A stretch of 64,000 nucleotides of DNA from a virus: the IMG/VR virus record IMGVR_UViG_3300050011_000164, positions 1-64,000 of that record. One strand, given 5' to 3'. The position numbers and the translations under genes were made by a program. The stretch's first letter is position 1. Each line of letters starts with the position of its first letter. This document shows positions 2,765 through 57,793 of this stretch, piece after piece. Under the pieces are notes generated by a model, which ran no database searches, was not told the DNA's origin, and was given only the letters and a program-made list of their open reading frames with translations.

Positions 2765-2835
2765 GTCTGTAAGCGGACTTCTCATTTCTTAGAAGGGCGG
2801 TACTTGTGGGACTCGGATATGGTACAGGAGTGGGC

Positions 2836-5355: not shown

Positions 5356-5682
5356 TTACCCCTTCGAAGGATCGGGGACAGCCGCAGGAGCAGCCGTAGC
5401 TGTCGCCGTGTTTGAGTTGTCGTTGTCCACGTTCACAATCGTGGTTGGTGCTTGCGTCGTTTTATCAGGCCAGACTTGACTGCCTACGAAATGTCCACCG
5501 AGGAGAGCATAGAAGCTAAATACCGTGCCCTGCACGTTTGGACCCAAGTCTTTCCCCGTATGACAATGCCACAGCAGTATCGCCGCTTGAAACGCACAGG
5601 CGATGGGAATGTGCATATAATTCTGGAGCCTATCAAGCCAAGGCTGGAGTTTGGGGAGGTACTTTTTGAAGTCTATACTCAT
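5356..5682 (-). CDS. small membrane protein (holin-like?)
   Basis: Two hydrophobic segments and an Ala/Pro tail; preceded by the phage promoter-like motif at 5696-5715. Confidence 0.45.
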   Translation of the reverse strand: MSIDFKKYLPKLQPWLDRLQNYMHIPIACAFQAAILLWHCHTGKDLGPNVQGTVFSFYALLGGHFVGSQVWPDKTTQAPTTIVNVDNDNSNTATATAAPAAVPDPSKG

Positions 5683-5695
5683 TGTTGAATCGTCC

Positions 5696-5715
5696 CTATT
5701 GAAGAATGCGGTAGT
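5696..5715 (-). promoter_or_regulatory. phage-specific promoter-like motif ACTACC-GCATT-CTT-CAA-TAG
   Basis: Matches the motif recurring upstream of at least 7 other genes or units. Confidence 0.55.
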
Positions 5716-5855
5716 TGTCGAAAATTTCTGTCAAGTAGAAAATTCTCGCACTGATGCTGCGAGACTTATGCTATCAATAACCGCATGAACACTGGGTTTT
5801 TAGATAGGTCAGAAACCTCAAATGGTATAATGGTTATAGTAGATCAGGAGGCAAC

Positions 5856-6167
5856 ATGACCAAGATTAGCAAGCGGAAGACGCGACTGAGCTTCGAGACG
5901 GATGCCGAGATGCGGGGGTGGGGCAGCATCACTGTGGATAAGGAGAAGAAGAAAACGCGACGTGTCCCAGTGACTCGGGCGATCATCGTGGATGTAGACA
6001 ACGCATTCCATGGCACCGTGCGACTGAAGGGCACCCGCCAAACCTTTGACTTCTCGTGGGAGGGATTGTTCCTGTGGGCCGTGGAGCAGAAGGTCATGAA
6101 GGAGCGTGCGGAGAAGAAGCGGCTGCGTGACGCTAAGAAGAAGGGACGCTTAGTCCACGTCCGCTAG
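5856..6167 (+). CDS. small basic hypothetical protein
   Basis: TGGTATAAT at 5823, SD GGAGG, Lys/Arg-rich ORF. Confidence 0.65.
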   Translation: MTKISKRKTRLSFETDAEMRGWGSITVDKEKKKTRRVPVTRAIIVDVDNAFHGTVRLKGTRQTFDFSWEGLFLWAVEQKVMKERAEKKRLRDAKKKGRLVHVR

Positions 6168-7883
6168 ACCACGTAAGGCGTTCTCGGACTCCTCTTCCTC
6201 AGTGGGAAAGGAGTCTGGATCGCCGAACGGTACGAACGCTTTGACCGATTTATCCCCACGATCATACGCCGCTCCTACGCGGTGAGTCCCGTCTATCACC
6301 GTGTTGTGATGGTCGAGCACGATAGGCGGGGCAGGGGTGTCCAACAGAGAATAGTTTTCGACCAGTTCTTCGGACGTTTCCCACGGGGCGTCGATCTGAT
6401 CCAGCGGCACTTCCTTCAGTACGAACTCTTTGTACTGCGTGATGCGGCCATCATCTTCGTAGCCCTCATGCATCTCGCGAGCATACTCCAACACCGACCA
6501 CGAATCCACTCGTTGTCCGACAGGCAGGTTCCCGATGTATTCACTCGCCATCTTACCTTCTATCAACTGAATTTGGCTCGGTGAGAATGGGATGTAGGCT
6601 TCAATCTGTGGCATGTTGGGAGCATCACTCCCGACCACGATCAGTCCGTCGTACCCCTTTTCAATCTGTTCTTGTCGCCACTTCGCATCCCTGACGTATT
6701 TCTCTTCCGCCTCAAACCCACCTTCCATCGCGTTGAGAACCAGCGGGCTGTTGAAGGTCACGTAGGCTACGGTGACCTCGCCGAATTCTGCGGCGTATTC
6801 CCTGTTGTTCGTGAAGTAGGTAGGGACTTTAGTGAGATCGGTGTCTCCTCCGTGGTAGAGCTTGTACCGCTTTTTACTCTCTTGCCATACGGCGGCGTTC
6901 TTTTGGAGTAGGGGGTTGCTCGCTGCCACGTAGCTTCTACTTGGCTGTGCGTTGGGCGGGGAAGCTTCCTTCGCGTTGCAGGTGTTTATCACAAACCATT
7001 CGGACTGCATACCCGAATAGTTGCTTTCATCTGGGTGCGTTCGATTACGCCAGAGAACGATATCCTCAAGAGCGATCCCCTGAATTTTGCCTACGGTCTG
7101 CCACACGATGCCGCGATGTCCACCAGAGAACCCCTTGGCGGTGTCGTAAGCCGCCGACCAAGATAGCAGGTCCCGAAGGTGTGGCTCCCACTTGGCGGGC
7201 TCGCGATCATCACCCATGCGAATCTCTTCCCCACGATAGAGACACTTGCGGGTAGTCGGCGGCACGAACGGTGTGAGCGATTTGACCAACTCAACCACCC
7301 GACCAGATGCCGCTGGGTTGTCCTCAAAGGCGTCGGCACACTGCACATATTGACCGAAGTAGCCGTAAAGCGCGTCGTCCATGGCGATAGTGTAGCAAAC
7401 TTTGTCGTACTTGCTTCGAGGTTTGTCGGCGGCAAATTTGATCTGGCAATGATATAAACCACCTCTCGCTTTGTCGATTTGGATGCTGTGCCCACGTCCA
7501 TCCCAGTACCGTTCCCACTTCTTCATGTCGCTTTTGTTGAGCAGACCTTCGTCCTTCCATGAGTCTGAGGCCGTGCAATGGAGTGTAACCGTAGCTCCCG
7601 CTCCAACAATTGGAATGTTATCTTCATCCGAATTGTAAATTTGTTGCGGCTCGTCATCGATAGGCTTAGGCTTACCAACAAGTTGTTCAATCTTCTTGCC
7701 CGAGTTTTTGAACAAGGTGATAAGGCCCGGGTGAAATTGGTCTGGGTTCTCGGCTATCATCCGGTGTATTTCGTCGAGAGTGAACCATTCGAGGCTAGTG
7801 GTTTCCCAACCATGACCCTTTTCGGGATGGAGTGAAACCTCTTGAGGAACGACACCCAGAAAATTGAAATACTTAAACGCCAC
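6150..7883 (-). CDS. downstream half of split polyvalent protein: NUDIX C-terminal part + two ADP-ribosyltransferase-fold domains + ParB/Srx domain
   Basis: FKYFNFLGVV...WETTSLEWF (NUDIX C-term); LYRGE..LSWS..QSEW; LYHGG..YFT..YA..GYDGLI; PPIVL..VIDGTHR. GTG start with GAGG SD inside the 3' end of the HNH gene. Confidence 0.75.
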   Translation of the reverse strand: MAFKYFNFLGVVPQEVSLHPEKGHGWETTSLEWFTLDEIHRMIAENPDQFHPGLITLFKNSGKKIEQLVGKPKPIDDEPQQIYNSDEDNIPIVGAGATVTLHCTASDSWKDEGLLNKSDMKKWERYWDGRGHSIQIDKARGGLYHCQIKFAADKPRSKYDKVCYTIAMDDALYGYFGQYVQCADAFEDNPAASGRVVELVKSLTPFVPPTTRKCLYRGEEIRMGDDREPAKWEPHLRDLLSWSAAYDTAKGFSGGHRGIVWQTVGKIQGIALEDIVLWRNRTHPDESNYSGMQSEWFVINTCNAKEASPPNAQPSRSYVAASNPLLQKNAAVWQESKKRYKLYHGGDTDLTKVPTYFTNNREYAAEFGEVTVAYVTFNSPLVLNAMEGGFEAEEKYVRDAKWRQEQIEKGYDGLIVVGSDAPNMPQIEAYIPFSPSQIQLIEGKMASEYIGNLPVGQRVDSWSVLEYAREMHEGYEDDGRITQYKEFVLKEVPLDQIDAPWETSEELVENYSLLDTPAPPIVLDHHNTVIDGTHRVGAAYDRGDKSVKAFVPFGDPDSFPTEEEESENALRGLADVD

Positions 7884-8622
7884 AAGCAGCCTCTTTCAAA
7901 TTTTGGAATTCATACAGCCTTTTCACCCAAGCTAACCATTCCCCGATTGACATGGTGTTCTTAGATCGGTTACAGAATTTACAAGCGGTTACGCAGTTGC
8001 TCGGAATGTATCCAATAGCATTGTCTGATCTGTCAATGCCGTTGTAGTAAAAGTCCGTTGGGTGCTGATACCAGACAGCGGCTCTTTTGATGTATTGGTC
8101 AGGCCATAGCGTTGATGGGGCTTCCCCACAATAATGGCAGTTATCGACAATCAGTTTGGAAAATTCTTCAAAGGACAGCTCGAACTTGTGTTCTCTATTT
8201 CTCGCGGCATTACGGTAGTTGTTGTAAATGCTCTTACGAGCCCGTTGGTGGTCGGGTTTAACAAAAGATGCACTCATCATTTCAAAGCTCTTACAACCAC
8301 AAGATTTGCTGATTCCTTCCATAAGGGATTGCGTCCTAACAACTCGTTCCACCCCACAAACACAACGGCAAAGCCAGCCGTGCGGTCTTTTATACTCTTT
8401 AACCGTCCAATAGCCGAATGGCATTCCCGCCAATTCGTTTTTCAGATGGTCTCGTTTGCCCACTACCACGGGGCAACTCTGATACGCACCGCTACAAATC
8501 AACCGACCGTTACTTTGTTGATACTTAGCGGGGTTCCCGCATCCAAAGAAACACAATTCAGAACCGCTGTACGGTAACGGTTTGGTGTTTTTCTTGCTTT
8601 TTCTCACATATTTTCTACTCAT
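7873..8622 (-). mobile_element. free-standing HNH (His-Me finger) homing endonuclease inserted into the NUDIX coding region
   Basis: WLCRCVCG...SKSCGC N-terminal module; CHYCG...NGIDRSDNAIGY..SNCVTACKFCNRSK. More AT-rich than its flanks. Confidence 0.85.
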
Positions 8623-8626
8623 ACAA

Positions 8627-8663
8627 CTCCTATTAAAATCTCTCTAATAGAAGGTGTCGTAGT
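8627..8663 (-). promoter_or_regulatory. promoter-like motif ACTACG-ACAC-CTT-CTAT-TAG overlapping an 11-bp hairpin that sequesters the HNH SD (AGGAG)
   Basis: CTTCTATTAGA-GAGAT-TTTAATAGGAG pairs fully with two G-U pairs; ATG follows 4 nt later. Confidence 0.65.
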
Positions 8664-8668
8664 CGATT

Positions 8669-11600
8669 TTATGCTGTAAAGACAAACGCTGGGTGTAGCG
8701 TAATACCGCCGCGATACCCAGTTTCTTCGCCTAACTCTTCTTTGGCACTTTCTTGCGGGGTCATTCCCTTTTTAACGGCTCCCCCGATGGTTCCGAAACA
8801 ATTCCCTCGGTCAACATCGGGCGATCTCCACGCAAGTCCTATCCTACCCGTTGTTGGACAAATGAGGAGTATCCCTGATGCTGCGTTGCCCTCACCTGAC
8901 CAAAATCCCTCCTCACCAAACCCTTCGGCGGCAAACTTATCATGCTCAATGCACCCACCACAAGAACAGGCCGCACACTTCGACATAGCATCTTTGAGTG
9001 CCGCTTGCTTGAGAAACACGGCTATCTTCGCGGGCATTTTCTTCAGACCGTTAGCTTCCTTGAAAGACGCCCCTTTAACTTGAGGGTTGTCCATAAACTC
9101 TCCCGTGTTTTTCTCCACCTCGCGAGCCTTGTCGTCCCAAATGGTGATCATTCCGGGGTCTTTCTCGTTCGTGGAATCCAAGGCTACCCCGATGTATTTC
9201 TTGGTGTAGGCTCGAATCAATCGCTGAAGCTGGTCACGATTCTCCCCGTCCGCTAAACGAGCGGTGAATACCTTGACAGTGTGTCCTTCGGCTATCGCTT
9301 TCTTGATCTTCTCCACCATCGCGAGAATAGGAGGTCCGATAGCCAAGGGAACAAATGGTTGCATGTCGTAGGCGATAGTCCCGTCGAGGTCTACGCCAAT
9401 CCATGGAAGGTACTCGGGTGCAGCGGTGTCCTTTGTACTACCTTCCTTCAACTGCTTGGGATCAATATCCAATGGGAATATTTCGACATCATTAGCCGTG
9501 AAGGTAACATCAGGAATTTTCTTCCAGTTATATCCACCGCCAGTCTCATAGAGAGAATGCGGGATGTCAATTCCCCAAGCCTCGTCGTCATCGTACACAA
9601 GAAGCCACGAGTGATCGTCTCCTTCCTGACCGCCCTCGGTGACCTGACAATCAATGGCGTTGCGGGCAATTACTTCGGCGATAGCATTAGCGATCTCAGC
9701 ACAAATGCCGCCCGCCCCCAGTACCTCATCCACGCCCTGTTCATCCTGTTCCCATTCGTCATAGACCTTTTGAGCAGTCTCGGCAAAGCGACCTTTCAAC
9801 AGTATGAGTTGCGACTTCAAATAACTCGTCGCTTGTTTTGACGCGATAGCCGCCGTCTTGCCCTCGCCCCATACTTGATCGATAGCACGCCATAGGTCAC
9901 CGAGAGAACCTTTACCCGATTCGTTGCCTAAATCCCACACAACTTCCGAGCCCTTGCAGATAGTGCCGAGTGCGCGACGTTGAGCGGGGGTAGGTTCATT
10001 CTTCGCCTCTACAACCCAGCCATCATAATCACCGTATATGCGTACCGCTCCCGTCTCGTGAAGTAAGCGACCTACTTGGGTAACTCCGACTTTCTTTGGG
10101 TCTTCGCCAAAAGCGACACAAGCGATCTGCTCGTGATAGGCGCTCGTGGAAACCATACCATCTTTCCAAATAAATCGAGGATCGGGCATCGCTTCATAAG
10201 GATGTTCCGCAGGGTAGGATTTACGGGCAACCTGCTCGGGCTTGCTTTTAGCCGCCGTCTTGACTACCCGCCCGTCGTTGTAGTAGCTGATTTTGGTGAT
10301 CGCCGACCGTGGGATATCGCCCTCGATGCGACGGTACATGTCGCCTTCCTCGAAATGTTCGGGGTCGGGCTCGCTCTTGCTGTAGTCCCAGATGAACTCG
10401 ATCACGGCGAACTGTTCGCTGTCCGTGGTACTCATGCCATATTCTTTTGCCGCGTACTCAGCGATGGCACACCAAACGTAAGGCTTCTTGGTGTCGAGCG
10501 AATCGCTGCCAGCCTTCAGACCTTCCTTGTCAATCTGTTCCGCCGCTTCCCACGATGTGCCGTGGTAGAAAACCTGAGGAGCATCTTCGTGGGCTGATGC
10601 GGCCACGCCCTTAGCCTTGGGTTGAACTTTGCGAGCATCCGTCACTTCGTACTTGCTGCCGAACTTGGTGTTCCACTGGCTGAAGAAGTCTGGCGGGATG
10701 GTGCCCCAATGCAAGATCATTTGAGCGGGAGTCTGCCGATCCCGAATTTCTACGATAGCGAGGATGTGGTTCGACCCGCTGAAGCCAATTGGCTCGTTGA
10801 CGCGGGAGGTGTTCATGTTGTATAGCTGATTCTTCGAGGACTCAGTGGACGGGCGGGCGAGGAGTCGCAATGTACGGGTAACCTTCTCTGCCGCTTCGCG
10901 AAACGCTGCTTCTCCTTCGGCTCCATCAGGGAGCACGGTGTTCATATCGGGGCGTTGCTTTTCCTTCGGGGTGCCGTAGAAGACCTGATCCCATGACCGA
11001 ATGTAAGCGTAGTTGTCCTTGACGTGACCTGCCGCACGAGTGACGGCTGCGAGCCATACGCTGGGTAGAAGCTTCTCAAGTTCCTTTTTCAGTTCGGGGT
11101 GGAACGACATCCCACGTTCTGCAAATTTACTCCCCCACTGTGTAAGGCACTTACCGATGTAATCATCCCGCATTCCTTCTATTTCTTGTTGCCATGTCTC
11201 GGCAGCACCTTCTTGTGTAGCCGCTAAGTAGTAGCAAAGAACGTGGAAGGTGTTGTCGCTCAAATGCTTGATTGGAGCGCCCAAGACTCCTGTGACGTTA
11301 TCTTCGTCAAGATACATGGTGTTGGGCTGAAGCTCCATGATGACGACCAAACAGCCGCCGCGAGCCTTCTTGTCTTCAGTGTTTGGGGCTCCCGTCGCCG
11401 TCATGAGGTTCTGCGTCACATAGGTGCCGCCGTAAGACTGACGACTGGGTGCGGTAATGCTCGCGTCAGGATCGTCTGCCCAGACCTTTTCCGTGCCTTC
11501 GGGAACCAACCCCTGACTCATGATGCTTTGCAGGTTCTTGAGGCTGGTGCCGTGATACCAGATGGACTTCGGGGCGGCGGTCACACCAATAGCTTTGGAT

Positions 11601-14600
11601 TCCTGAGGAATCAATATAGTGTATTTGGGGAACTTCTTCTTGAACATATCCACTACGGCATTGGCAATAAACCCATCTTCTAGAGGGTTAGATGGCGCAT
11701 TCTCCAAAGTTACAGTCTTCTCATCCCTGTCAATTTCAGCGTAACCTCGATCCACCTCATCGAATTTCCGACCACTAGCCATCTCCTTGCCCATGGTCTT
11801 TGCTACCAAGTCCGCGTGAGGACCTATTTTTCCTATCCTTGAAAACGCACCATAATCAGGGTGATAAATCCATTTTTCGTATCTGTCTTCCACGTCTCTC
11901 CAACTGCCGCGCTTCTCCCTCGACGATGGGGCATTCTCGTTAATGAAGCGGTGCATCAGGATGATGGCACTTTCTTGCGCGGAAGTCGCCTGACTAAGCG
12001 TGTAATCGTTTTGCACGCCCAATTCGCTGAATGTATTCTGGTACGTTGCATAGAAGTCCTCGGCTTCATGAAGGTTATTCTCGGCCTCTCCAAGCATCTC
12101 ACCCAGATACTTCCTGTCCTTCCGATTCGACTTACGTAGATATTCCTTGCAGTGGTATAGCAAGCTTGCTATCGTCTTCTGTTGCCGCTCGACTACTGCT
12201 TCCGCAACGATGGGGAGCGCATCTACCCGCGCTCTGCTGGGGTGATACAAAATCGCATCGTGCTCAGTCAACAATGATTCATGCGTCGGAGCCGCAGTCT
12301 TAACTACGGGCGCTTTATCCCTAGCGTACTTCGTAAACTGCTTGGGCTCCCAATAGAGCTTCCAATGTTTCTCGTACTTGCCCGTCAATTCGCAGATCGA
12401 CTCCCCGGGTTTCTCTACCTTAAGAACGGTGGTCTCGGCAACAGGCATCTTGTCGAAAGTAAAGTAGACCTTTTCATTTGGCAGAACGGCGGGACGACCC
12501 TTGAACGCCCAGAACTCCAGATTGTGTGCGGGCGGTTCGTCCCAGAAGTGACCACGGGAATCTTTTGGAACTTCGATGAAGAAAGCAAACTTGGCGAAAT
12601 CTGACGCCGCCTTGACGATATCTGATGATCCCCTGACGATAGGTTCAACGGTCTGGGACTGGATAGCATCGGGATTAAATAGGGCGACTGACACATGCTT
12701 GCCACGTTTGTTGCCGCTGTACACATCGTTGCAGATGACGCCATCCACTCCGTTGTTCTTCAGGAGTTCGACGTTAGCGGGCCTGCCTTCGAGTACACCG
12801 TAATCTGTGTAGTGCTTTACGAATTCCTCATCGCTCATTGGCGGATACCCGTTGCTGCCTCGCCAGACATCTACGTTCTTTTTGATCTGCTGAACCAGTG
12901 GCTCGTTTAGATCGCGGAGGTCAATGATCTTAGCGTCGGGCTTGAGGATGACCTTGAACATGCGGCTCTGCCCCTTTTGATAGTGCTGATTGGCGTAAGA
13001 CTCCGCATCCTGCTTCTCTGCCAACCAGATGATTCCATGGCCCAGCCCAGATAGCTCGGTGAAGTCGCCTTCTTTGTTGGTGCCGTGGTAGAAAACTCGG
13101 TCTTTTGGCGTCAGGGCGGCGGTCTTAGCATAGGGGTCAACCTTGCTCACAAACTGTACAGCGTTCCCGCTGTAGGTACGCCACTCACCCAATGCCGACT
13201 CGCGGGTGCCCATCGCACCAGCTATGGGCTTGAATTGGAGAATTGCAATCTGCTCGATTGGTGTGCTGGCGAGTGCTGGGATGTTCGTACTGAAGAACAG
13301 GGGATTCATCGGCCCGCCCGCGTTCTCACGTGCGGCTGCCCACGTCTTGTAAAAATCAAAGGTGCGGTCCTGAAGCTCGGCATCGGATAGCGGCTGCATC
13401 CACGTTACCCAACGCCCCATACCATCCCCACCCATCCAACCTTCACCGATGGGTTCCGCATTGCCCATCTGATCCTGCCGTTTACCCATGGATACTTGCT
13501 CAATCTTCTTACCATCGAGTAACGCCTGAATATGGTCGGGCCAAGGTTGTCCCACGTTCCACTTTTTATCGCCTGTGTAATATGCCCCGCCCCACGTGAT
13601 CGCTTCGTATATCCACGGACGACTGGCGGTCGTGCCCTTTGTCGCCATGTCGATCATCTGCTGTAGGGTGAATTCACCGCTTGCAACCTTACGACCCTCT
13701 ACCATAGCAAGGTAGATGCTCTGTGCGGTTGCCAGATCGTCAGTGAAGCTGACGGCTTTGTCGGTGCCGCCGCCGAGTCCCGTACCCTGATCCATCGACA
13801 ATTGGTAGCGGGTCTTCAAACCTCCTGACATAACTTGGTCGGCTGCGGTTGTCACGTGGTACAGATTGGCTGGCAGGGGCTTGAACGTTCCCGGCAGATA
13901 AAGCCCACGAGCCTTGGCTTCTTCGGGAGCGAGTTTTCCTTCTGATACGGCAGCGAGAGCAAGCTGTTCCCAATGATTGTTCTTCTTGTAACGTTCCGTC
14001 GTCGCTTCCTGCGGCTCTTCTTCAAACATCTGAGTCTCGGGATTGATTGGTGGGTATGGAGAATATTCGTTTCTCGCCATCTCCCATGGTTCCGCAGCCG
14101 TTTTCTCTGAAGCTTGCTTACCAGTGCCGTAACGCTCTGCCATCCAGCGGACAGCCTCGCCATCTGGAGCTTTCGAGAACGCACTACCGTCGTTGGCGGC
14201 ATCGACAATCTTCGGATCACGTTCCATCAATTCTTCCCACGTGCCGTCTTCCATCAGGTAACGCACGTGGTGGTGGAACGGCTCATGGAATGCCACGATC
14301 TGGTTGAGAGGAACGTCGCCGTTTGCAATGACGTGATGGTAACCCTTTGCCCACTCTTCAGGACTATCTTCTTTACGAGGGTATTCTGCCCGATGACTAA
14401 TCTGCTCAGGAGATAAGTAGAGTTCAACAAATAAGTGAGTGTCGCCCGGGGGACGAGTAGATGCCCATATACCTGCGGACGGCCCTGAGCCGCTCCCGTC
14501 ATCGCCGCGAGCAAACGACGCAAGCAATCCTCGCTTCTTGATGCTCTCGAAGCTTTCTCTGCTCTTCGTGTAGTGATACAGCCGAACTGTTCCCGCAGGA

Positions 14601-17600
14601 ATCTGAGTCTCACCCGGCTCAAGCGGAATCTCACTGGCGGCGAGCTTGGCGACTGCACGCTGAGCTTTGGGCTTCTTCGGGGCTTTTTTCGGCAGCAATG
14701 ACGCAGCGTTCGCAATCGCGTAATCAACAACTTCCGACAAACCCCCCTCGAATAACGGATTACCATCTTGATCCTGAATAGACCATGTGCTGTATCCGTC
14801 ATTGAAAATTGGAATGATGTTCTTGGCATCCTTACCCCAGAAAATGATCTGCTCGAAATCATCCCCCGTATGGTACGTCTCGATGCCGTTTGCTTGGAAT
14901 AGGACGCAGTGCCGACCGTAGTCTTTCCCGAGACCTTCGAGGTTACGGTGGTGGGCATCAATGGCAAAATTATACCCGCCCATCTTCTTTGCCTCATCCT
15001 TGAAGTACGTTGTCAGAGCGAGCGTCTCTACCCGATCCATACCGAACTTAAATCCGTTCTTGGCAATCTCTTCGGGGTGATCGGTGAAGTGCACTAACCA
15101 AGCATTCTTGACATCACGCCGATAATCTACGGTCAGGAACGTTGGGGCATTAGCTGGGTCATCCTGCATCGCCTGACTACCATACTGTTCGAGGAAATCG
15201 CTCAGTATGTCATCGGAGACCATACTGAAATCGTCCATGTACTCGTCTTCATCGAGGTTTTCCAAAAATTCGGGATGCTCGTTCTCTACGAATTGTCTCC
15301 AGTAACCGCTGAATATACGAGCTAACTCTTCGCCCATATCACGGCGGCTCGGGGTAAGGTAGCTCCGCAGGTTAGCAAGATCGGCTGCCGCCGCATTCTT
15401 CTCTATCTCCACGAAATCAGGTCCAGCTTCGGGCGTCTCGGGAGCAACCTGTTTCTCCAACGCCTTGCCGCGATAACGGGACGCGGGGATGAGTCCTAGC
15501 TTCTTGCAGATTGGGCAATGGCGATTCAGCCCGCCCTGATTCTTCATTCGACGCTCGAAGTCTCTATCCACGTTATCCCAAATACGGGCAACGGTGAACG
15601 AAATACCTTTCGCATGAATGGCTTCAATCAGCTTAACTCCTGAGGTTGCTTTGTAGTGTTGGTCGATACGTTCCTGTGCATTCTCACTCCATCCCATGTA
15701 ATGGCGAGCGTGGAATGGTTTCTTAGCATCCTCGCGGCTGCTGGGAACCTCTTCCTTCGGGTCGATATCGAAGTGCAGGAGATAAACCTGACCCTTAACC
15801 GACGCGGTGACCGTTCGCACAGGGGGTTGCGACCATCCTGATTTCTTATCGTACTGGATTCCCTCAAGCTCAAATTGTGTACCCTCCAGCAAACGTACTT
15901 CTTTTTCGTTTTCGCCCAATGAAGGAAACATGTTGGAGTAGATGGTGCCTTCCCAGTCAACGTTATCCTCATTGATTACGCCGTGCAACGTCACACTCGG
16001 CCCACCCGTACCCCAGTGGCACTCTGCGGCACCCTCCTCCCACGACCAGTAGATGCCCACGCCTTGGTACTTTATTGCCTGCAATCCTTGCTGGAGTTTC
16101 GCTTGTGGAGTGTCGGGGAACAGGTGTTGCTGTTGTGCGTCCTTAGCCTTTGGTAGGGAGATGCAGCGGAACACGTCCATCGGAAACTGCCAGCCCTGAT
16201 ACTCAGCTACCAGATTCTCGTAACGCTCACGGAAATCTCCGACTGCGCGTTTACGCAGTATATTTTGGTACGACTTGACCTCGGCTGGGTTGCTGGGGTC
16301 TTCCAGACCGTAGCCGTATGTTTCCGCCTCATCGACATCGTACTCGCTGAGCAGCTTACCAATGCCGCCCATCTTCTTCAGCCACGCATTGAACGACTGG
16401 AAGCTTGCTGCCGTCTTGGTCGAGGCTGTCGTTGCTTCCTCGGGATACTTCGCTTCCCAGTCTCTCTTTTGCCGACGCTGTAGCTCCTGCTTATGGTACT
16501 TGTTGGCAGTGTAGGGATCAATCTCAGGCTCGATGATGCCTTTCTGTTTGACCTGAGTGGGCTTGAACACGATGTAGTCGTCCGCCAGACTCTCGTGATG
16601 GAGTTCGTAAACGTTTTTGATGATCGCCCCATCATAGCCATTCTCGTAGGCGTACTTAGCGAGGATGTCGGTGTCAACCGTATCCATTCCCTCAGCGACC
16701 CAACCCTTCAATTTCTTGGGAGTAGGAATGGAAGAGTACCCAGACCCCTTGGCGTCCACAATAAGGGGTTTATTCATCGTTAGGTAGCACTCGTGCACGA
16801 AGGTGCCGTATGCCTGTGCAACGAGCGGATCGGAACTGAAGAATTTTCCAATCTTGTATTGGTCGATCTGGATTTCATCAGACCACTCACGGTGGGTGCC
16901 GTGATAAACTGGACCGTACTGCTTGGCGACCTTGCCTGCTTCCTTCTTCTCCTCTGGGAACAAAGGCGTTTTCTCTAACTTCGGGAACGATTTTCCGCCC
17001 ATGCCGTGGGCAACATCTGCAATCATGTCTACCTCGTCAGGTAGCATCTGGGTTGACCCGCTCGCCTTTTTGTACCCAGCGAGTGAATTCAGGGTGCTGG
17101 TACCGCCTTGTACAAACCAACTTGCGAGATCGCTGCGGGCATGGACGATGTTTAGGATGCGGTCAACAGCTTGGAGCTTCTGCTCAGCCGTTTGAGCCTG
17201 TTCAAGGCGGATAGCACTATCGACAAGCTTATCTAGGGCATAATCAGTTAGCCGCCACTGTCCGCTGTCGTCGTCGAAAAAGGTGTAATCAACATCCTCA
17301 ATGTTGGGAAGGTCCTTAACGTACTCCTCGCCCATGACTGATTCAACAAACTGTTCGGATGCTTGGTCAGTGTGTCCGCAAAGGATTGTGTTGGTATGAA
17401 TTTTCCAGATATTTTCGAGTATCCGCCACGTAATGTCGTCCATGCCTTTTTCATCGCGTACTATACCTGTCTTGGCATAGTCGTTCCAGATTTTCTTTAG
17501 ACGAGCAGCGGGCACCACATCCCACTTCTGACGATACGAAGGGTCGTTCCGATGTGAGTCAAATTCCTGAATAACGGATTCTGCAATGGAATCGAGCCCC

Positions 17601-20600
17601 GTGAAATAAGACTCCGCATCGGCGGTCTTCAATAAAGACCCAAACTTCGGTGTTGGAATGACCTTGATTGCGTTCGCGGGGATGTCGCCAAGGTAAGCAA
17701 CTTGACAACTGTATTTGAGGCTTACTTCCCACGGCACAAGTGCCCAATTGTCGCCGTACTCTTCTTTTACCCACGGTTCGATGTCGCCACTGTAACGCTC
17801 CCAAACATCGGGGAAATCGTAGTCATCTGGACGGAGCAAGTCTTGGCGCAGGTTGCTGACCGTGATCTGAAGGATGATCCAGTTCTCGGGCTTCACCCCT
17901 TTGTGCCCCGCGTAGTTGGCTGCTGTCGTTTGATCGCAGGCGAGATACGTAGCTTTCTGCCACTCGATGTTGCTTTCGTTGAATTCAACACGCAACCCAC
18001 CATTCAAGATGGCGTCGAGATTCTTTTTGTCGGTGCCGTGATACAGGTATTGCGGAATCGGGAAGGGTTCCTCGGCAGCCCGAGCCGTCTTCTCTTCATC
18101 TGGGAACAGCGGGTTCTCTTCTAGCTGTGGGAAGTCCTGTCCGCCAATGCCTTTCTGTCCACGCATAGGTAGGTTCTTGGAATCGTCGCCGTAAGCCACG
18201 ACCGTTTTCTGGATTGGCTTCCTGTAGCCATCCCCATATTCGATACCCACTAATCGAAGCTCGGCACCTGCCACAACTGTGATCTCATTCTCCTCCTCGT
18301 TGAGCATGTTCGCGAGAAGAGTTGCATCCCAATCCACGTCGGTTGAGCGCAATACCTTGGCTTTCAGGATTACAGTTTGAGGATTCTTCGGGTGCGGACC
18401 ACCTTGATCCCACATTGACCCCGAACCAAAGTACGCATCGGCACTATTTTCAACCCACGTCCAATAGACACCCGCGTGCTCCAAGTTCGGCTGCGTGCCA
18501 GTCTCGACTTGAACCGCACGATAGATGGTGATGGGGAAATCCACCGTGCTGAAGTGAGCGACGTTCTCGTCATAGCGGTACCCAGCCTCGTTGAAATCGT
18601 CAGGCTGGTACATCGGGTTCGCATCACACCAGTTGTCAAACGGCATGGGCTTGAAATTCTGAGCCCCGGTCTTGAACAAGGCGGGCGAAAGAGTTTCGAG
18701 TGACGGTAGGTCTTCTACACCCTTTACACACTCGGGAATGTCGGCGTAGGCATTCGTCTCCTCGCCCATCTCTGGATTCTCATACTGCGTATCGCTCATC
18801 GGCGGGGTTTTGTGTGATGCCGTGATTTCCCCCTGCTCAGGATCAAACTTCCCCGTGTTACCCGTAGCCGACTTGATCTGATTAGCTTCAAACACAGCGT
18901 AGTTCACCGTACCGAGTTCGATCAGGATCACGCCATCGTGTCCCATTTGCTTGATGTAGTTTATAAAGCCCGGGAGTTCCAACACCACCCAATTGCCCTC
19001 TCGAATCTGCTTCATGAATGCCTGTCGGTCGTAGTTGGAATAATCCTCGGGTACGAGTTCCTCGGGCGTCTTATTTGTGGCGTCTGCAACCAGACGCTCG
19101 TACTCATAGTCTCCTTCGCTCCAATTTGGCGAGACTTCCTCCAGCCAATCCAAGGCGGTGCTCTGACCTTCGTCGGTGCGGAAGTCAAACGGGTCTTCGA
19201 TCTTCAAGTACACGGGCATGACGTTTCCGCCCGGGTCCTTATTTGGGGACGAATAGAGACTGGCAAACTTCGGGTCCGTACTGAAGAATGCAAGATAGTC
19301 GCCGCTATACTCCTTCTCGAACTTCTGAATATCGGATGAAGGCGTGCCGTGGTACACAATAAGAGGGTTACCATGCTTGTCCACGACTTTCGAGGCACCG
19401 AACCACGCCTTAAATTCAGGCGTTTCGGTAAACGGCTTCGTTGGGTTTTTGACATTTTTGGTCGGCTTATAGGCTGCGGACTTAAGAGGTTTGCCAAAAG
19501 GCACTCGAACCTGACCCCCGCCCTTCTGTGATAAGGTGATGTCGTTCACTTCAAATGTCACACCCTCAACCCAATCCAACCCATCGTACTTGGCGGCAGC
19601 TTCGGGCTTGACATAAGCAAGCGTCACGTGCGGCTTGTAGTCGAAGTCATCCTTGCGGGTGCTCATGGCCTTGTTGACCATATCGTGCAGAACTTCAAGC
19701 TCAGGAGCGTGCGCTTCAACTACAATGGGAGCCTGAGCATCAGAGCTTTCACTCACCTCGAATACATGTGTTTTGCCCAGCGTAACGGTGAACGGCTTCT
19801 GATCGGCGACGACTTGGCTGAGTAAGGCTGAATCAGCTTTGATGCCGTACTTGATCGTGATGTGAGCCTCATCTTCCCGCCCATCCTCGCCAAGCTCCTC
19901 ATCAGGAATCTGTGTAGCGGCTTCGTACATCTTAGCCGCAGCATCAGGCGACAAGTTGATGTGAGCCGTCGCGTTCTTGTGTGGACCTGAGTTGGCTTCC
20001 TTTGCACCCTCGATAGCATCGAGTTCGTCCTGTATGGGGGAGCAAGCGAATTTCGCCATCGGAGCATTAGCCCAGAGGTCTTGGAGCTTCTGTTCCTGTT
20101 CTGGAGTACGTGGGAGATTCCATCCCGTGTACTGCTTAATTCGACCTCGCCCTTTGGTGAATACGGAGTCCGTTGTCTTAACCAATTTGAATTCGCCCGA
20201 AGCCCAGTCAATCCCATCGAGGTACGCCATAGCCTGACGGCTAAGCCCCACCGCCCATTGCCAGCCCAAACGTTGCTTGTGCCGCCCGTACACGTAGTTG
20301 TTGAGCAGGACAAAGATTTCCTTGCCCTGATCGTCCACTACGGTGTCCTTATCGGATTTCTCTGTCACAAAGTCCGCACCGTATTTTGCATCGAAACGCT
20401 TGGCGACTTCTTTCCACTCCTTGCCGTGTCCATCTGGCCCAAAAATGTTTTGATACCGTTTGTAGGTTTCGTAACCGATTTCCAGAAGTTTTGGCTTGGC
20501 AATGAGCAAGGCGACTTCATGATGACACAGTTCATGGGCAATAACGCGACGGAGGGTCTCCTCATGCCCCAGAACCTTCTTCTGAATTTCCAATGTGGTA

Positions 20601-21067
20601 TTGTCGTCGCCCCAAGTCTCATTGGCTTTCTTGCCCCAAAGCCAACGGCATTGCCCCAACGTTCTATTGGTCTGGTTTATGATCTTGACTTCGGGCTGGG
20701 GGAGTCCTGCGGTGAGGACGCCCATCATCTCGGTGACAATGTTCTTCATCTGACCGATATCGGCGGCGGTTTTGGCAGCAGCAGATTTCTGTGTCGGGGT
20801 AAGAGTTACGAACTTCCCATCGGCAGGATCGCCAATAACGGTGCTCATTCCATCCGTATTATAGTCGTCGAAGATCGCCCAATGCTCATCCCACCAATCG
20901 GCTTCGGGGGTGCCTGCTTCACGTCGGCAGCCGAGGGTGTGGGTTTCGACAATGAAATCCCCGATTCTCTGGCTGATGCCACAGACTTGAGGATCGGTCT
21001 CATCTAACAGGTTTTGAGCCTGAAGAAGAACGTCCTTTGTATCAGGCTTTTGGAGAAGTGGGTTCAT
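8669..21067 (-). CDS. 4132-aa polyvalent protein: SprT metalloprotease, 2H phosphoesterase, ~11 ART-fold domains, GIY-YIG, papain-like C-H-D domain, HAD phosphatase, NUDIX N-terminal part
   Basis: HELCH (~20530); HITI/HVTL (~19860/19625); YHGT/YHxT or YR..YW[ST]W..ExE motifs at ~19350, 18520, 18040, 16900, 16170, 15090, 14570, 13855, 13085, 11555, 10560; VYLLHF..HYMG..R..QH (~15780); GICAEIA..HSW..IDI (~9700); DLDGT (~9385); Nudix box GG..KKGMTPQESAKEELGEETG (~8750). Confidence 0.85.
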   Translation of the reverse strand: MNPLLQKPDTKDVLLQAQNLLDETDPQVCGISQRIGDFIVETHTLGCRREAGTPEADWWDEHWAIFDDYNTDGMSTVIGDPADGKFVTLTPTQKSAAAKTAADIGQMKNIVTEMMGVLTAGLPQPEVKIINQTNRTLGQCRWLWGKKANETWGDDNTTLEIQKKVLGHEETLRRVIAHELCHHEVALLIAKPKLLEIGYETYKRYQNIFGPDGHGKEWKEVAKRFDAKYGADFVTEKSDKDTVVDDQGKEIFVLLNNYVYGRHKQRLGWQWAVGLSRQAMAYLDGIDWASGEFKLVKTTDSVFTKGRGRIKQYTGWNLPRTPEQEQKLQDLWANAPMAKFACSPIQDELDAIEGAKEANSGPHKNATAHINLSPDAAAKMYEAATQIPDEELGEDGREDEAHITIKYGIKADSALLSQVVADQKPFTVTLGKTHVFEVSESSDAQAPIVVEAHAPELEVLHDMVNKAMSTRKDDFDYKPHVTLAYVKPEAAAKYDGLDWVEGVTFEVNDITLSQKGGGQVRVPFGKPLKSAAYKPTKNVKNPTKPFTETPEFKAWFGASKVVDKHGNPLIVYHGTPSSDIQKFEKEYSGDYLAFFSTDPKFASLYSSPNKDPGGNVMPVYLKIEDPFDFRTDEGQSTALDWLEEVSPNWSEGDYEYERLVADATNKTPEELVPEDYSNYDRQAFMKQIREGNWVVLELPGFINYIKQMGHDGVILIELGTVNYAVFEANQIKSATGNTGKFDPEQGEITASHKTPPMSDTQYENPEMGEETNAYADIPECVKGVEDLPSLETLSPALFKTGAQNFKPMPFDNWCDANPMYQPDDFNEAGYRYDENVAHFSTVDFPITIYRAVQVETGTQPNLEHAGVYWTWVENSADAYFGSGSMWDQGGPHPKNPQTVILKAKVLRSTDVDWDATLLANMLNEEENEITVVAGAELRLVGIEYGDGYRKPIQKTVVAYGDDSKNLPMRGQKGIGGQDFPQLEENPLFPDEEKTARAAEEPFPIPQYLYHGTDKKNLDAILNGGLRVEFNESNIEWQKATYLACDQTTAANYAGHKGVKPENWIILQITVSNLRQDLLRPDDYDFPDVWERYSGDIEPWVKEEYGDNWALVPWEVSLKYSCQVAYLGDIPANAIKVIPTPKFGSLLKTADAESYFTGLDSIAESVIQEFDSHRNDPSYRQKWDVVPAARLKKIWNDYAKTGIVRDEKGMDDITWRILENIWKIHTNTILCGHTDQASEQFVESVMGEEYVKDLPNIEDVDYTFFDDDSGQWRLTDYALDKLVDSAIRLEQAQTAEQKLQAVDRILNIVHARSDLASWFVQGGTSTLNSLAGYKKASGSTQMLPDEVDMIADVAHGMGGKSFPKLEKTPLFPEEKKEAGKVAKQYGPVYHGTHREWSDEIQIDQYKIGKFFSSDPLVAQAYGTFVHECYLTMNKPLIVDAKGSGYSSIPTPKKLKGWVAEGMDTVDTDILAKYAYENGYDGAIIKNVYELHHESLADDYIVFKPTQVKQKGIIEPEIDPYTANKYHKQELQRRQKRDWEAKYPEEATTASTKTAASFQSFNAWLKKMGGIGKLLSEYDVDEAETYGYGLEDPSNPAEVKSYQNILRKRAVGDFRERYENLVAEYQGWQFPMDVFRCISLPKAKDAQQQHLFPDTPQAKLQQGLQAIKYQGVGIYWSWEEGAAECHWGTGGPSVTLHGVINEDNVDWEGTIYSNMFPSLGENEKEVRLLEGTQFELEGIQYDKKSGWSQPPVRTVTASVKGQVYLLHFDIDPKEEVPSSREDAKKPFHARHYMGWSENAQERIDQHYKATSGVKLIEAIHAKGISFTVARIWDNVDRDFERRMKNQGGLNRHCPICKKLGLIPASRYRGKALEKQVAPETPEAGPDFVEIEKNAAAADLANLRSYLTPSRRDMGEELARIFSGYWRQFVENEHPEFLENLDEDEYMDDFSMVSDDILSDFLEQYGSQAMQDDPANAPTFLTVDYRRDVKNAWLVHFTDHPEEIAKNGFKFGMDRVETLALTTYFKDEAKKMGGYNFAIDAHHRNLEGLGKDYGRHCVLFQANGIETYHTGDDFEQIIFWGKDAKNIIPIFNDGYSTWSIQDQDGNPLFEGGLSEVVDYAIANAASLLPKKAPKKPKAQRAVAKLAASEIPLEPGETQIPAGTVRLYHYTKSRESFESIKKRGLLASFARGDDGSGSGPSAGIWASTRPPGDTHLFVELYLSPEQISHRAEYPRKEDSPEEWAKGYHHVIANGDVPLNQIVAFHEPFHHHVRYLMEDGTWEELMERDPKIVDAANDGSAFSKAPDGEAVRWMAERYGTGKQASEKTAAEPWEMARNEYSPYPPINPETQMFEEEPQEATTERYKKNNHWEQLALAAVSEGKLAPEEAKARGLYLPGTFKPLPANLYHVTTAADQVMSGGLKTRYQLSMDQGTGLGGGTDKAVSFTDDLATAQSIYLAMVEGRKVASGEFTLQQMIDMATKGTTASRPWIYEAITWGGAYYTGDKKWNVGQPWPDHIQALLDGKKIEQVSMGKRQDQMGNAEPIGEGWMGGDGMGRWVTWMQPLSDAELQDRTFDFYKTWAAARENAGGPMNPLFFSTNIPALASTPIEQIAILQFKPIAGAMGTRESALGEWRTYSGNAVQFVSKVDPYAKTAALTPKDRVFYHGTNKEGDFTELSGLGHGIIWLAEKQDAESYANQHYQKGQSRMFKVILKPDAKIIDLRDLNEPLVQQIKKNVDVWRGSNGYPPMSDEEFVKHYTDYGVLEGRPANVELLKNNGVDGVICNDVYSGNKRGKHVSVALFNPDAIQSQTVEPIVRGSSDIVKAASDFAKFAFFIEVPKDSRGHFWDEPPAHNLEFWAFKGRPAVLPNEKVYFTFDKMPVAETTVLKVEKPGESICELTGKYEKHWKLYWEPKQFTKYARDKAPVVKTAAPTHESLLTEHDAILYHPSRARVDALPIVAEAVVERQQKTIASLLYHCKEYLRKSNRKDRKYLGEMLGEAENNLHEAEDFYATYQNTFSELGVQNDYTLSQATSAQESAIILMHRFINENAPSSREKRGSWRDVEDRYEKWIYHPDYGAFSRIGKIGPHADLVAKTMGKEMASGRKFDEVDRGYAEIDRDEKTVTLENAPSNPLEDGFIANAVVDMFKKKFPKYTILIPQESKAIGVTAAPKSIWYHGTSLKNLQSIMSQGLVPEGTEKVWADDPDASITAPSRQSYGGTYVTQNLMTATGAPNTEDKKARGGCLVVIMELQPNTMYLDEDNVTGVLGAPIKHLSDNTFHVLCYYLAATQEGAAETWQQEIEGMRDDYIGKCLTQWGSKFAERGMSFHPELKKELEKLLPSVWLAAVTRAAGHVKDNYAYIRSWDQVFYGTPKEKQRPDMNTVLPDGAEGEAAFREAAEKVTRTLRLLARPSTESSKNQLYNMNTSRVNEPIGFSGSNHILAIVEIRDRQTPAQMILHWGTIPPDFFSQWNTKFGSKYEVTDARKVQPKAKGVAASAHEDAPQVFYHGTSWEAAEQIDKEGLKAGSDSLDTKKPYVWCAIAEYAAKEYGMSTTDSEQFAVIEFIWDYSKSEPDPEHFEEGDMYRRIEGDIPRSAITKISYYNDGRVVKTAAKSKPEQVARKSYPAEHPYEAMPDPRFIWKDGMVSTSAYHEQIACVAFGEDPKKVGVTQVGRLLHETGAVRIYGDYDGWVVEAKNEPTPAQRRALGTICKGSEVVWDLGNESGKGSLGDLWRAIDQVWGEGKTAAIASKQATSYLKSQLILLKGRFAETAQKVYDEWEQDEQGVDEVLGAGGICAEIANAIAEVIARNAIDCQVTEGGQEGDDHSWLLVYDDDEAWGIDIPHSLYETGGGYNWKKIPDVTFTANDVEIFPLDIDPKQLKEGSTKDTAAPEYLPWIGVDLDGTIAYDMQPFVPLAIGPPILAMVEKIKKAIAEGHTVKVFTARLADGENRDQLQRLIRAYTKKYIGVALDSTNEKDPGMITIWDDKAREVEKNTGEFMDNPQVKGASFKEANGLKKMPAKIAVFLKQAALKDAMSKCAACSCGGCIEHDKFAAEGFGEEGFWSGEGNAASGILLICPTTGRIGLAWRSPDVDRGNCFGTIGGAVKKGMTPQESAKEELGEETGYRGGITLHPAFVFTA

Positions 21068-21068
21068 T

Positions 21069-21089
21069 CTACTTTAAGATACCAATAGT
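21069..21089 (-). promoter_or_regulatory. promoter-like motif ACTATT-GGTAT-CTT-AAAG-TAG directly before the giant ORF ATG
   Basis: Motif ends 1 nt before the ATG; no SD present. Confidence 0.5.
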
Positions 21090-21103
21090 TTCAGTGTTTT
21101 TGG

Positions 21104-21502
21104 TTAAAACAGGGTGTGACCTTTGTAGAGAGCGTGCTTCCTGAAGATACCTTTGTCCGCAATATGTTGCCGCCACTGCTCGAACGCAGGACCGTGGTCG
21201 TCCTTCATGTTCGTGGCGAGATGAATCATCTCATGTGCCATGGAACTTAGGATGCTGACCCAATCAGCCTTCTCATCCAGAACGATCTCGAAATTGTGAC
21301 GGCAGTTGGGGCAGTTCCTCTCGTTGTGGGGCCAAGTGGGAGTGTTTGGTGCATCCGCCCAGCCGTGGAAGCCCGTTTCTATCTCTCGCTTCTCCTCCCC
21401 CTGTCTTGCGTATCGAAGGCACACCCATTCGGGACATACGCCGTCGAAAAACCGCTTATTTATGTCCTTATACCAACGGCGAAGTGTGCGGTCAGACTGC
21501 AT
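21104..21502 (-). CDS. SprT-like zinc metalloprotease
   Basis: INKRFFDG, HEMIH, DHGPAF; SD AGGAG. Confidence 0.75.
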   Translation of the reverse strand: MQSDRTLRRWYKDINKRFFDGVCPEWVCLRYARQGEEKREIETGFHGWADAPNTPTWPHNERNCPNCRHNFEIVLDEKADWVSILSSMAHEMIHLATNMKDDHGPAFEQWRQHIADKGIFRKHALYKGHTLF

Positions 21503-21512
21503 TTGACGGCTC

Positions 21513-36523: not shown

Positions 36524-36775
36524 TTATCCTCTGGCACTCTTCCACTCCTTGTACTTCTCAGGTAAACATTTAGCGCAAGGACGGAACCCAGCGGCAATGG
36601 CTGTGGCTTCATCCTTGAAGAAAACTCTGTGTTTTACGTAGTGTCCTGCGGCGATGAAACGGAGAGCAGAAGGGCAGTCGAGCCTACCGTATATCTTGAG
36701 TTGCCTGTGTCCGCCCAACTTCCCGGGCGTCTTGCTTGCTCGAATCCAGCCGTCCGATCCCATCAACAGAAACAT
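36524..36775 (-). CDS. stand-alone Ada metal-binding domain protein
   Basis: KIYGRLDCPSA...RVFFKDEATAIAAGFRPCAKC. Confidence 0.8.
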   Translation of the reverse strand: MFLLMGSDGWIRASKTPGKLGGHRQLKIYGRLDCPSALRFIAAGHYVKHRVFFKDEATAIAAGFRPCAKCLPEKYKEWKSARG

Positions 36776-57789: not shown

Positions 57790-57793
57790 AGGT

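Follow-up and report, generated by a model that had tools for sequence, protein, structure and literature searches.

A recurrent K-x-A-[AS] linker between the modules of a giant polyvalent protein from an uncultured jumbo phage, and its candidate role as a site for the head-maturation protease

Polyvalent proteins, as described by Iyer et al. in 2017, carry 2 to 15 domains; in the text available of that paper, delivery with the DNA and release of the domains by embedded or assemblin-like peptidases are predicted (PMC5512222). They are thought to form the first wave of phage counter-defence, and how one chain becomes active has so far only been guessed. Here, a giant protein of this kind is described from a stretch of 64,000 nucleotides (nt), called the window below, which represents the first 64 kb (positions 1 to 64,000) of the 84.7-kb IMG/VR virus record IMGVR_UViG_3300050011_000164. 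About 25 putative host-modifying enzyme modules appear to be joined in this protein by a recurrent tag, K-x-A-[AS], with K-T-A-A as its best form. We lean, with modest confidence, towards the view that the core of this linker is the recognition site of the lineage's own head-maturation protease (PHROG 18299), which would have a specificity without Glu, and that the chain is cut in the head.

Several well-described systems are relevant to this view. The cleavage motifs of T4 gp21 and phiKZ gp175 are short and of the prohead-protease type. The T4 proteins Alt and IPI-III carry an N-terminal capsid-targeting sequence that is removed by gp21, and Alt is annotated in the T4 record as a capsid-borne ADP-ribosyltransferase (ART). 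Herpesvirus assemblin, a capsid-maturation serine protease, cuts Ala-Ser junctions for its self-release and for processing of the scaffold, and a Lys at position -2 is not known to be part of its consensus. According to the text available on phage SPN3US, gp245 cuts head and ejection proteins, as well as its own C-terminal propeptide, at a short A-X-E motif (PMC10052503).

The window comes from a soil phage, judged by its sequence an uncultured jumbo myophage akin to Tunturiibacter phage Tunturi_5 (PP885688), a 309-kb myovirus. Tunturi_5 is the nearest cultured relative of the large terminase (terL) that a PHROG scan located at 42741-44978 of the window, with 40% identity over 94% of the protein. 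CheckV estimated the completeness of the record at 26%, which makes it part of a phage genome of roughly 300 kb. A relative from IMG/VR, G002, is a 155-kb phage contig with sheath, capsid, and protease genes and is syntenic with the window; its terL is 88% identical, the three large proteins encoded next to terL are 76-86% identical, and the gene for an InPase-RelA protein is 89% identical.

The minus strand of the window holds three consecutive open reading frames (ORFs) at the locus. ORF A (8669-21067, 4132 amino acids, aa) encodes the main part of the polyvalent protein and ends with a TAA stop in the middle of a Nudix module. It is followed by an ORF of 249 aa and by ORF B (6150-7883, 577 aa), which encodes the C-terminal part, namely the rest of the Nudix module, modules without a recognised family, a weak ART-PolyVal domain, and a ParB-like end with a DGTHR motif recognised by eye. 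All features of the polyvalent gene given below lie on the minus strand. Five giant relatives of 3152-5480 aa, P0005 to P0009 (P0005 with 5480 aa and P0006 with 5245 aa), share 39-80% identity with ORF A.

The linker motif at the joints between modules

Enrichment of the motif was tested in ORFs A and B together (4709 aa) against 2000 composition-preserving shuffles. The pattern K.A[AS] occurs 24 times, with a shuffle mean of 4.11 and a maximum of 13, and KTAA occurs seven times with a mean of 0.15; neither count was reached by any shuffle. The looser form [KR].[AG][AS] gave 33 matches against a mean of 11.9, again beyond all 2000 shuffles. When 24,000 three-residue patterns were scanned without bias, K.AA ranked second (16 against 2.6 expected, P 1.8e-8), and the sole pattern above it, YH.T, is the catalytic motif of the repeated ART domains. 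Seventeen other orderings of the residues of K.A[AS] gave 1-16 matches, the higher counts overlapping the same sites. At the first position, only Lys was in excess among the residues tried (24 against 4.1 expected), and Thr is the commonest second residue (7 of 24 sites). A pattern with Glu, E.A[AS], was found six times against 4.8 expected, so that the sites do not follow a Glu-ending motif of the T4 gp21 or phiKZ gp175 type. An artefact of composition was rejected on the basis of the whole-protein shuffles, the 17 permuted orderings, the first-residue controls, and the pattern scan.

In the rest of the record, 86 other ORFs (21,567 aa) contain 37 K.A[AS] sites and a single KTAA. Twenty of these 37 sites belong to three large low-complexity or Cys-rich proteins next to terL (46315-57882, minus strand; 1118, 1884, and 674 aa), for which no Pfam or PHROG function was found. 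They hold 6, 9, and 5 sites against 1.5, 2.9, and 1.1 expected, an excess of about 4-fold that was reached by 4-6 of 1000 shuffles for each protein, and are candidates for further substrates. Four of the five giant relatives are significantly enriched in the motif, and P0006 has 6 KTAA. No enrichment is seen in three giant proteins of Dolichospermum phage Dfl-JY45, which is unrelated (4 against 1.9, 3 against 1.5, and 1 against 0.6). Of 27 shorter relatives with a length of 500 aa or more, those that are closer tend towards a 2- to 6-fold excess and those that are distant (E above 1e-30) are at expectation. A generic property of giant phage proteins was rejected from this one unrelated phage together with the distant shorter relatives, and by these comparisons the linker motif is specific to the phage lineage.

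To define module boundaries independently of the motif, the ends of BLASTP segments with at least 50% identity to the five giant relatives were used, which gave 54 ends in 30 clusters. Thirteen of the 24 motifs lie within 12 aa of such a breakpoint (random mean 4.3; 0 of 10,000 trials). Conversely, the strict motif is found at 12 of the 30 breakpoints (random mean 4.0; 0 of 10,000 trials) and the looser motif at 15 of the 30 (random mean 6.4; 2 of 5000 trials). A hand check placed one of the 24 sites inside a Pfam-matched stretch and one at the edge of such a stretch. When the relatives are anchored on a downstream module, the motif is retained even though the upstream module differs; for example, KAAA or KTAA stands ahead of the SprT module in three relatives whose neighbouring modules are not the same.

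The first-pass annotation of this DNA, made from the letters alone, had listed 22 motif strings, all of which are present at the locus, and it had expected the motif to exceed composition and to concentrate at module boundaries; both expectations were borne out by the counts above. Its statement that nearly every boundary carries the motif was overstated because about half of the independent boundaries do so. Likewise, the notation [KR] for the first residue is unsupported because Arg gives 1 match against 2.3 expected, in contrast to the excess of Lys.

At the N terminus, four of the five giant relatives begin with MNPLL[QL]K.A, and the module behind it differs from one to the next; variants of this leader also open several shorter relatives. 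The window protein begins with MNPLLQKP; its leader MNPLLQK (21047-21067), with the linker position next to it, is a candidate capsid-targeting peptide.

Further along ORF A, the linker KSAAAKTAA (20762-20788, aa 94-102) is found upstream of the SprT-like module at the breakpoint cluster 94-97, and KSAA (19472-19483, aa 529; breakpoint 534-551) separates the 2H domain from the first ART domain. KFAS (19259-19270, aa 600) is enclosed by the envelope of an ART-PolyVal match and is unlikely to be a linker. KKAS (17060-17071, aa 1333) is located upstream of a GSTQ[ML]L segment that is preceded in relatives by KKAS, KAAG, or KTAT..GGAG. A KTAA linker (16406-16417, aa 1551; breakpoint 1543-1554) is retained in P0006 behind a different upstream module, and KNAA (15389-15400, aa 1890; breakpoint 1887) corresponds to a KQAA in P0008, also behind a different module. 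KLAA (14636-14647, aa 2141) coincides with the breakpoint 2140-2142.

The double linker KQASEKTAA (14093-14119, aa 2317-2325) has no breakpoint within 12 aa, and KVAS (13679-13690, aa 2460), which is conserved within a module in four relatives, may be internal. Another KTAA (13115-13126, aa 2648) precedes the third ART-PolyVal domain by 10 aa, and KAAS (12602-12613, aa 2819; breakpoint 2801-2811) is replaced in relatives by RKSS, KKTA, or KESS. Three more KTAA linkers follow at 12290-12301 (aa 2923; breakpoint 2935-2938), 10250-10261 (aa 3603; breakpoint 3606), and 9848-9859 (aa 3737; no nearby breakpoint). A Cys-rich spacer before the Nudix module (8927-9076, aa 3998-4047; breakpoint 4047) contains a cluster of KGAS, KQAA, KCAA, and KFAA, and its last site (aa 4047) reads MKTAE or MKLAE in relatives. 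In ORF B, with breakpoints in the joined numbering, the sites are KFAA (7428-7439, aa 149; breakpoint 4283), KEAS (6960-6971, aa 305; no nearby breakpoint), NPLLQKNAA (6891-6917, aa 323-331; breakpoint 4454), which is an internal copy of leader and linker upstream of the fourth ART-PolyVal domain, and KMAS before the ParB-like end (6543-6554, aa 444; breakpoint 4584).

Since module gain and loss among the relatives occurs at motif points, the repeats might be regarded as DNA-level recombination joints for cassette exchange that have no meaning in the protein. This reading was rejected as very improbable. The seven KTAA sites are written with AAA or AAG, with ACC, ACG, or ACT, and with GCC, GCA, GCT, or GCG, and because the codons differ between sites they have no nucleotide word in common. 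The use of different synonymous codons argues that the motif is selected at the protein level.

A second explanation accepts a role in the protein without a cut. The motif could serve as a flexible linker or as a tag for docking or packing, which moves with the modules and stays intact in one giant multi-enzyme chain. Modules do bring the motif into new contexts, as duplication and shuffling would produce, and the virion RNA polymerase of phage N4 is packaged unprocessed according to the text available of the polyvalent protein paper (PMC5512222). A passive linker does not readily account for a motif that is specific in the order of its residues and in Lys beyond the effect of composition, or for its lack of enrichment in the giant proteins of another phage lineage. 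The head proteins of the relatives, described below, bear on the same point.

The motif in the head-maturation protease and its neighbours

The annotated head-maturation protease of Tunturi_5, gp331, has homologues of 64% identity in the IMG/VR relatives G001 and G002, and the protein matches phrog_18299 'head maturation protease' with an E of 1.8e-14. An alignment was made of 44 homologues with 62-87% identity, chosen among the matches listed (120 of 573). K.A[AS] is present at reference residue 33, in the N-terminal region, in 36 of the 44 sequences, at residue 45, just ahead of the conserved core, in 34, and at residue 272, in the variable C-terminal tail, also in 34, where most of the others have M-x-A-S. 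Residues A274 and S275 are invariant within this variable tail, as are K5, A7, and A9 near the N terminus. The K.A[AS] sites thus stand where self-processing typically occurs in such a protease.

The protease family (Tunturi_5 gene at 35861-36724; P0010) comprises 573 homologues, and the contigs that carry some of them reach about 890 kb. Four Cys and several His residues are invariant in the family, and one source labels a member as a Zn-finger protein.

The motif is also found next to the protease. In G001 and G002, the gene that separates the protease gene from the capsid gene encodes a protein with 6-8 sites, among them KSAAAKTAA, which is the same string as aa 94-102 of ORF A. Within the structural region of G002 (40 kb), 12 sites against 3.6 expected fall in four head-module genes, while the other 34 ORFs, including sheath and tail genes, contain 8 against 5.3 (sums made by hand). 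Of all 173 ORFs of G002, the most enriched encode a Cys-rich protein of 2002 aa (11 sites against 1.9 expected) and the polyvalent protein (15 against 5.0). The 'DNA ejection protein' of Tunturi_5, gp328, has 10 sites against 1.7 expected. In these relatives the motif therefore stands both at positions of the self-processing type in the protease and in a head-module protein. The near-invariance of the motif in the variable tails of the protease family, and its recurrence in unrelated head-module proteins, are further points against an uncut linker, which we consider rather unlikely.

A different protease could also be responsible. The SprT-like zincin embedded in the polyvalent protein, or a separate 132-aa SprT-like ORF upstream, might cut the linkers before packaging or after injection with no involvement of the head protease; zincin processing is the mechanism that Iyer et al. 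proposed for polyvalent proteins in the text available, where processing by embedded peptidases is predicted (PMC5512222). A SprT-like HExxH is found near the N terminus of ORF A, P0005, P0007, P0008, and Tunturi_5 gp321, and the upstream ORF adds a second, weak SprT-like candidate. The zincin is the weaker candidate because P0006, with its 6 KTAA, and P0009, which has linkers, keep the motif without any HExxH. In addition, the 132-aa ORF is missing from G002, and the head protease and its neighbouring head-module proteins, in which the motif is conserved, would be unexpected substrates for a zincin effector. Processing by a zincin is accordingly judged improbable.

Cleavage by the head-maturation protease would involve three steps. 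The chain would be loaded into the prohead, where the conserved MNPLLQK leader may target it. As the head matures, the linkers would then be cut, by analogy at the bond that joins the Ala to the small residue behind it. Finally, the pieces would be injected along with the DNA and, inside the host, may modify targets by ADP-ribosylation and break down nucleotide-based defence signals. The placement of the scissile bond after Ala and a targeting role for MNPLLQK are suggested by precedent, namely by SPN3US gp245, T4 Alt and the internal proteins, and herpesvirus assemblin. The other motif-rich large proteins may likewise be head cargo that is cut during maturation.

Several observations weigh against cleavage by the head protease and have to be set beside this evidence. 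Eleven of the 24 sites have no nearby breakpoint, and 18 of the 30 breakpoints lack the strict motif. P0009 is not significantly enriched (7 sites against 2.8, with a shuffle maximum of 9). The enrichment of the head-module genes in G002 is moderate, at about 3.4-fold, and the G002 homologue of the ejection protein gp328 shows none (2 against 2.06). Three close capsid proteins carry K[ST]A[AG]G and KLAAS at residues 19-30; this 'site' (LLK[ST]A[AG]G, then QKLAAS) is a family-wide N-terminal motif in which Lys is replaced by Gln or Arg in distant homologues, and K.A[ASGN] is present in only 28 of 102 sequences, all of the closest lineage. After this family-wide comparison, the capsid site was downgraded from strong to weak evidence.

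The class of the protease and the record itself also argue for caution. No Pfam match was found for gp331, a sequence search of the PDB gave only a chance match (E 0.66), and hhalign of the protease against T4 gp21 returned a probability of 0.3%; its Atlas neighbours with S78 or S80 have scores of 0.90-0.93 and serve as leads only. No protease, capsid, or scaffold gene was found in the 84.7-kb record, in which 16 Tunturi_5 structural proteins used as tblastn queries matched the polyvalent gene only, and PHROG scans of 30 window ORFs detected the terminase and no capsid or protease gene. As the phage's own record holds no head genes, the link to the protease rests on the relatives. ORF B has no N-terminal leader and would have to be loaded in some other way.

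The first-pass annotation had proposed that a prohead protease with a specificity other than Glu processes the chain, and had suggested a search for its gene elsewhere in the genome; such processing is, in refined form, the reading with the best support. No such gene is on the 84.7-kb record, and one was found in the syntenic relatives. The part of the proposal that concerns the motif stood, in that it is conserved in the protease of the relatives and enriched in their head-module and not their tail proteins. Cleavage, packaging, and injection are steps that we infer, a point that also speaks for an uncut linker. The broadest form of the proposal is that a widespread protease family of soil huge phages uses a Glu-free K-x-A|[A/S] site, and that a DNA-virus polyprotein of about 25 counter-defence enzymes is loaded by MNPLLQK, cut in the prohead, and injected. 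This is plausible, and we would stop slightly short of calling it probable.

Modules, the insertion in the Nudix module, and neighbouring genes

Pfam was run on the whole of ORF A and then on 20 segments separately; 13 of the 20 segments gave no Pfam match or matches at chance level only (E at or above 0.014). The first recognised module is a SprT-like zincin (20387-20713, aa 119-227; PF10263, E 2.6e-5, 24.5 bits against a 25.6-bit cutoff), with the HExxH motif HELCH at aa 178-182. It is followed by a 2H phosphoesterase of the LigT/Acb1-like type (19517-19882, aa 396-517), which matches PF13563 (2_5_RNA_ligase2) at E 2.7e-11 and also PF23474 Acb1 at E 0.0012, below cutoff.

ADP-ribosyltransferase domains make up the largest recognised group, and nine motifs of the form [LIVFYW]-[YF]-H-x-[TSG], the ART signature, were counted in the polyvalent protein. 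ART-PolyVal domains 1 (18845-19381, aa 563-741; PF18760, E 8.5e-45) and 2 (16544-16909, aa 1387-1508; PF18760, E 7.7e-12) are clear. Domain 3 (12653-13096, aa 2658-2805) is below cutoff (PF18760, E 6.6e-5, 24.1 bits against 31.2) and matches an in-house hidden Markov model (HMM) of the paralogues that was built from this segment among others. Domain 4 (6552-6827, ORF B aa 353-444) is also below cutoff (PF18760, E 5.1e-5) and is matched by the in-house HMM. A PARP/Tpt1-like ART is found at 17867-18070 (aa 1000-1067; PF00644, E 1.6e-11; PF01885, E 3.5e-10). Two weak matches to PF01885, both below cutoff, are a Tpt1/PARP-like one at WYHGTS (11483-11572, aa 3166-3195, E 0.005; YH.T at aa 3170) and a Tpt1-like one at FYHGTS (10508-10591, aa 3493-3520, E 0.0054; YH.T at aa 3500). 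ORF A closes with the N-terminal part of a Nudix module including the Nudix box (8708-8878, aa 4064-4120; PF00293, E 0.0014, 19.1 bits against a 21.1-bit cutoff), and alignment to the intact Nudix modules of P0005 and P0006 indicates that the fold runs on into ORF B.

From these matches, the predicted modules are a SprT-like zincin, a 2H phosphoesterase, at least four ART-PolyVal domains, three PARP/Tpt1-like domains, a Nudix module, a ParB-like end, and many modules of no recognised family. The early description of a polyvalent protein with ART, SprT, and phosphoesterase modules agrees with the Pfam matches in this jumbo-phage fragment. Its figure of about 25 modules depends on counting linkers together with breakpoints; Pfam recognises only about 10.

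By its domain content, the locus is a polyvalent protein of the class of Iyer et al. Unrelated catalytic domains are combined in one polypeptide, with four copies of ART-PolyVal (two below cutoff) and one strong and two weak PARP/Tpt1 matches. Among the hallmark families, PF18760 is present in ORF A, PF18823 (InPase) in a gene nearby upstream, and the SprT-like domain is 1 bit below its cutoff. A mobile-element origin is indicated by the IMG/VR virus record, the large terminase, and the synteny with the 155-kb phage contig.

The gene is interrupted by the 249-aa ORF (7873-8622), a free-standing HNH endonuclease gene that matches HNH and endonuclease VII PHROGs (phrog_1035, E 2.5e-15; phrog_374, E 2.5e-13) and has no Pfam match. 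The TAA stop of ORF A (8669-8671) is located directly past the Nudix box, and 46 nt with a ribosome-binding site separate it from the HNH start. ORF B starts at a GTG (7883) within the HNH gene, so that its first 11 nt overlap the HNH stop, and AAGAGG precedes this start. P0005 (67% identity) and P0006 (55%) are unbroken across the junction of A and B (joined residues 4047-4205), no homologue of the HNH gene was found in G002 by BLASTP, and on either side of the insertion a stretch of flanking DNA, about 30 nt on the left and about 75 nt on the right, no longer resembles the G002 sequence. The endonuclease ORF is thus placed between two intact halves that are continuous in relatives, as in the 'genes in pieces' arrangement.

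A search of Rfam with E up to 1 over 5500-22000 gave no group I or group II intron, which excludes only described families. An intron or intein was rejected, and a free-standing insertion is favoured, because there is no Rfam intron, the spacer has only 46 nt, and the start of ORF B overlaps the HNH stop. Most simply, the gene was split within the Nudix module by a free-standing homing endonuclease, which left what appear to be two translated pieces. The last 577 residues are predicted to be translated separately, with a restart that is translationally coupled. The one polyprotein of the first-pass annotation is thus now two ORFs in the window, split by the HNH gene. The single tRNA of the window (45156-45230, minus strand), just upstream of terL, has a CUA (amber-reading) anticodon and is labelled tRNA-Pyl by ARAGORN; it is irrelevant to the split because the stop of ORF A is TAA.

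Upstream of the polyvalent gene, the 132-aa ORF (21104-21502, minus strand) is weakly SprT-like (HEMIH; PF10263, E 1.1e-4, below cutoff) and has no BLASTP homologue in G002. The next gene (21513-22985, minus strand) encodes a 490-aa fusion of InPase (PF18823, E 8.2e-30) and a RelA_SpoT domain of the alarmone synthetase type (PF04607, E 9.7e-11). This protein has KEAAASKVAAG between its domains and GKTASL after the second, and its three K.A[AS] sites, against 0.7 expected, were reached by 29 of 1000 shuffles.

On the other side, 2.2 kb from the end of ORF B, a ClpX-like AAA+ protein is encoded at 2806-3990 on the plus strand (PF07724 and ClpB D2-small; phrog_4871 'ATP-dependent protease'), and the scan of ORFs identified no ClpP-like partner. 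A cut of the linkers after Ala-Ala would leave -AA at the end of the freed pieces. Elsewhere in the window, a galactosyl transferase is encoded at 30893-31813, and Tunturi_5 also has galactosyl transferases near its polyvalent gene. Glycosyltransferase-rich genes occupy 60433-64000 and continue beyond, including a gene for a 775-aa protein with several glycosyltransferase PHROG matches (61185-63512).

Significance and comparison with known systems

A junction code of this kind offers a concrete processing mechanism for polyvalent proteins. If true, the packaged and injected effectors of uncultured huge phages could be predicted from sequence alone. The code also points to a protease specificity that was not found described for phage head proteases in the literature searched, as far as the text of those sources was available, and the existence of the cultured relative Tunturi_5 makes the processing idea directly testable. 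Polyvalent proteins and their predicted processing are already in print; a junction code in common with a capsid protease was not found in the available texts. No published K-x-A-[AS] junction or cleavage motif was found in the literature searched, as far as its main text was available. Proteomics is not mentioned in the available text of the Tunturi paper, where the words 'mass spectrometry' and 'protease' do not occur.

The closest counterpart is gp321 of Tunturi_5, annotated as a 'MutT/NUDIX hydrolase', which shares SprT, 2H, and ART-PolyVal domains with the window protein at 27-33% identity and has SKAAA or KSAAT (K-[AS]-A-A) between its Pfam domains. Unlike the window protein, gp321 has 1362 aa and about 6 modules, lies inside a structural gene module, and has no HNH insertion.

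The window protein resembles the polyvalent proteins of Iyer et al. in that unrelated effector domains are combined in one phage-encoded chain, with ART-PolyVal, zincin-like, and 2H domains, and an InPase nearby. It differs from them in size, as about 25 modules in 4709 aa compare with 2 to 15 domains. Moreover, a four-residue junction code appears here to be held in common with a head protease, whereas in the available text of that paper no junction motif is described and the word 'linker' occurs 0 times. The available text favours embedded zincins, while two relatives here keep the code without a zincin.

Like T4 Alt, the chain includes an ADP-ribosyltransferase that is a candidate for head cargo, and a short leader stands directly before a site of the protease type (MNPLLQK-x-A). 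Unlike in T4, leader and cut motif are unrelated to those of Alt, and a multi-enzyme chain takes the place of one enzyme per protein. The likeness to herpesvirus assemblin is limited to a small Ala|Ser-type junction.

SPN3US gp245 is the nearest model for the proposed protease. In both cases, one short motif is found in capsid-module and ejection-type proteins and in the C-terminal tail of the protease, with several sites per substrate and some short N-terminal propeptides. Membership of the lineage protease in S77 or S80, the families of T4 gp21 and phiKZ gp175, is not established. Compared with prohead-protease systems, the motif here is free of Glu and consists of Lys at -2, Ala, and a small residue, and the putative substrate is a chain of about 25 enzymes instead of a single protein with one propeptide.

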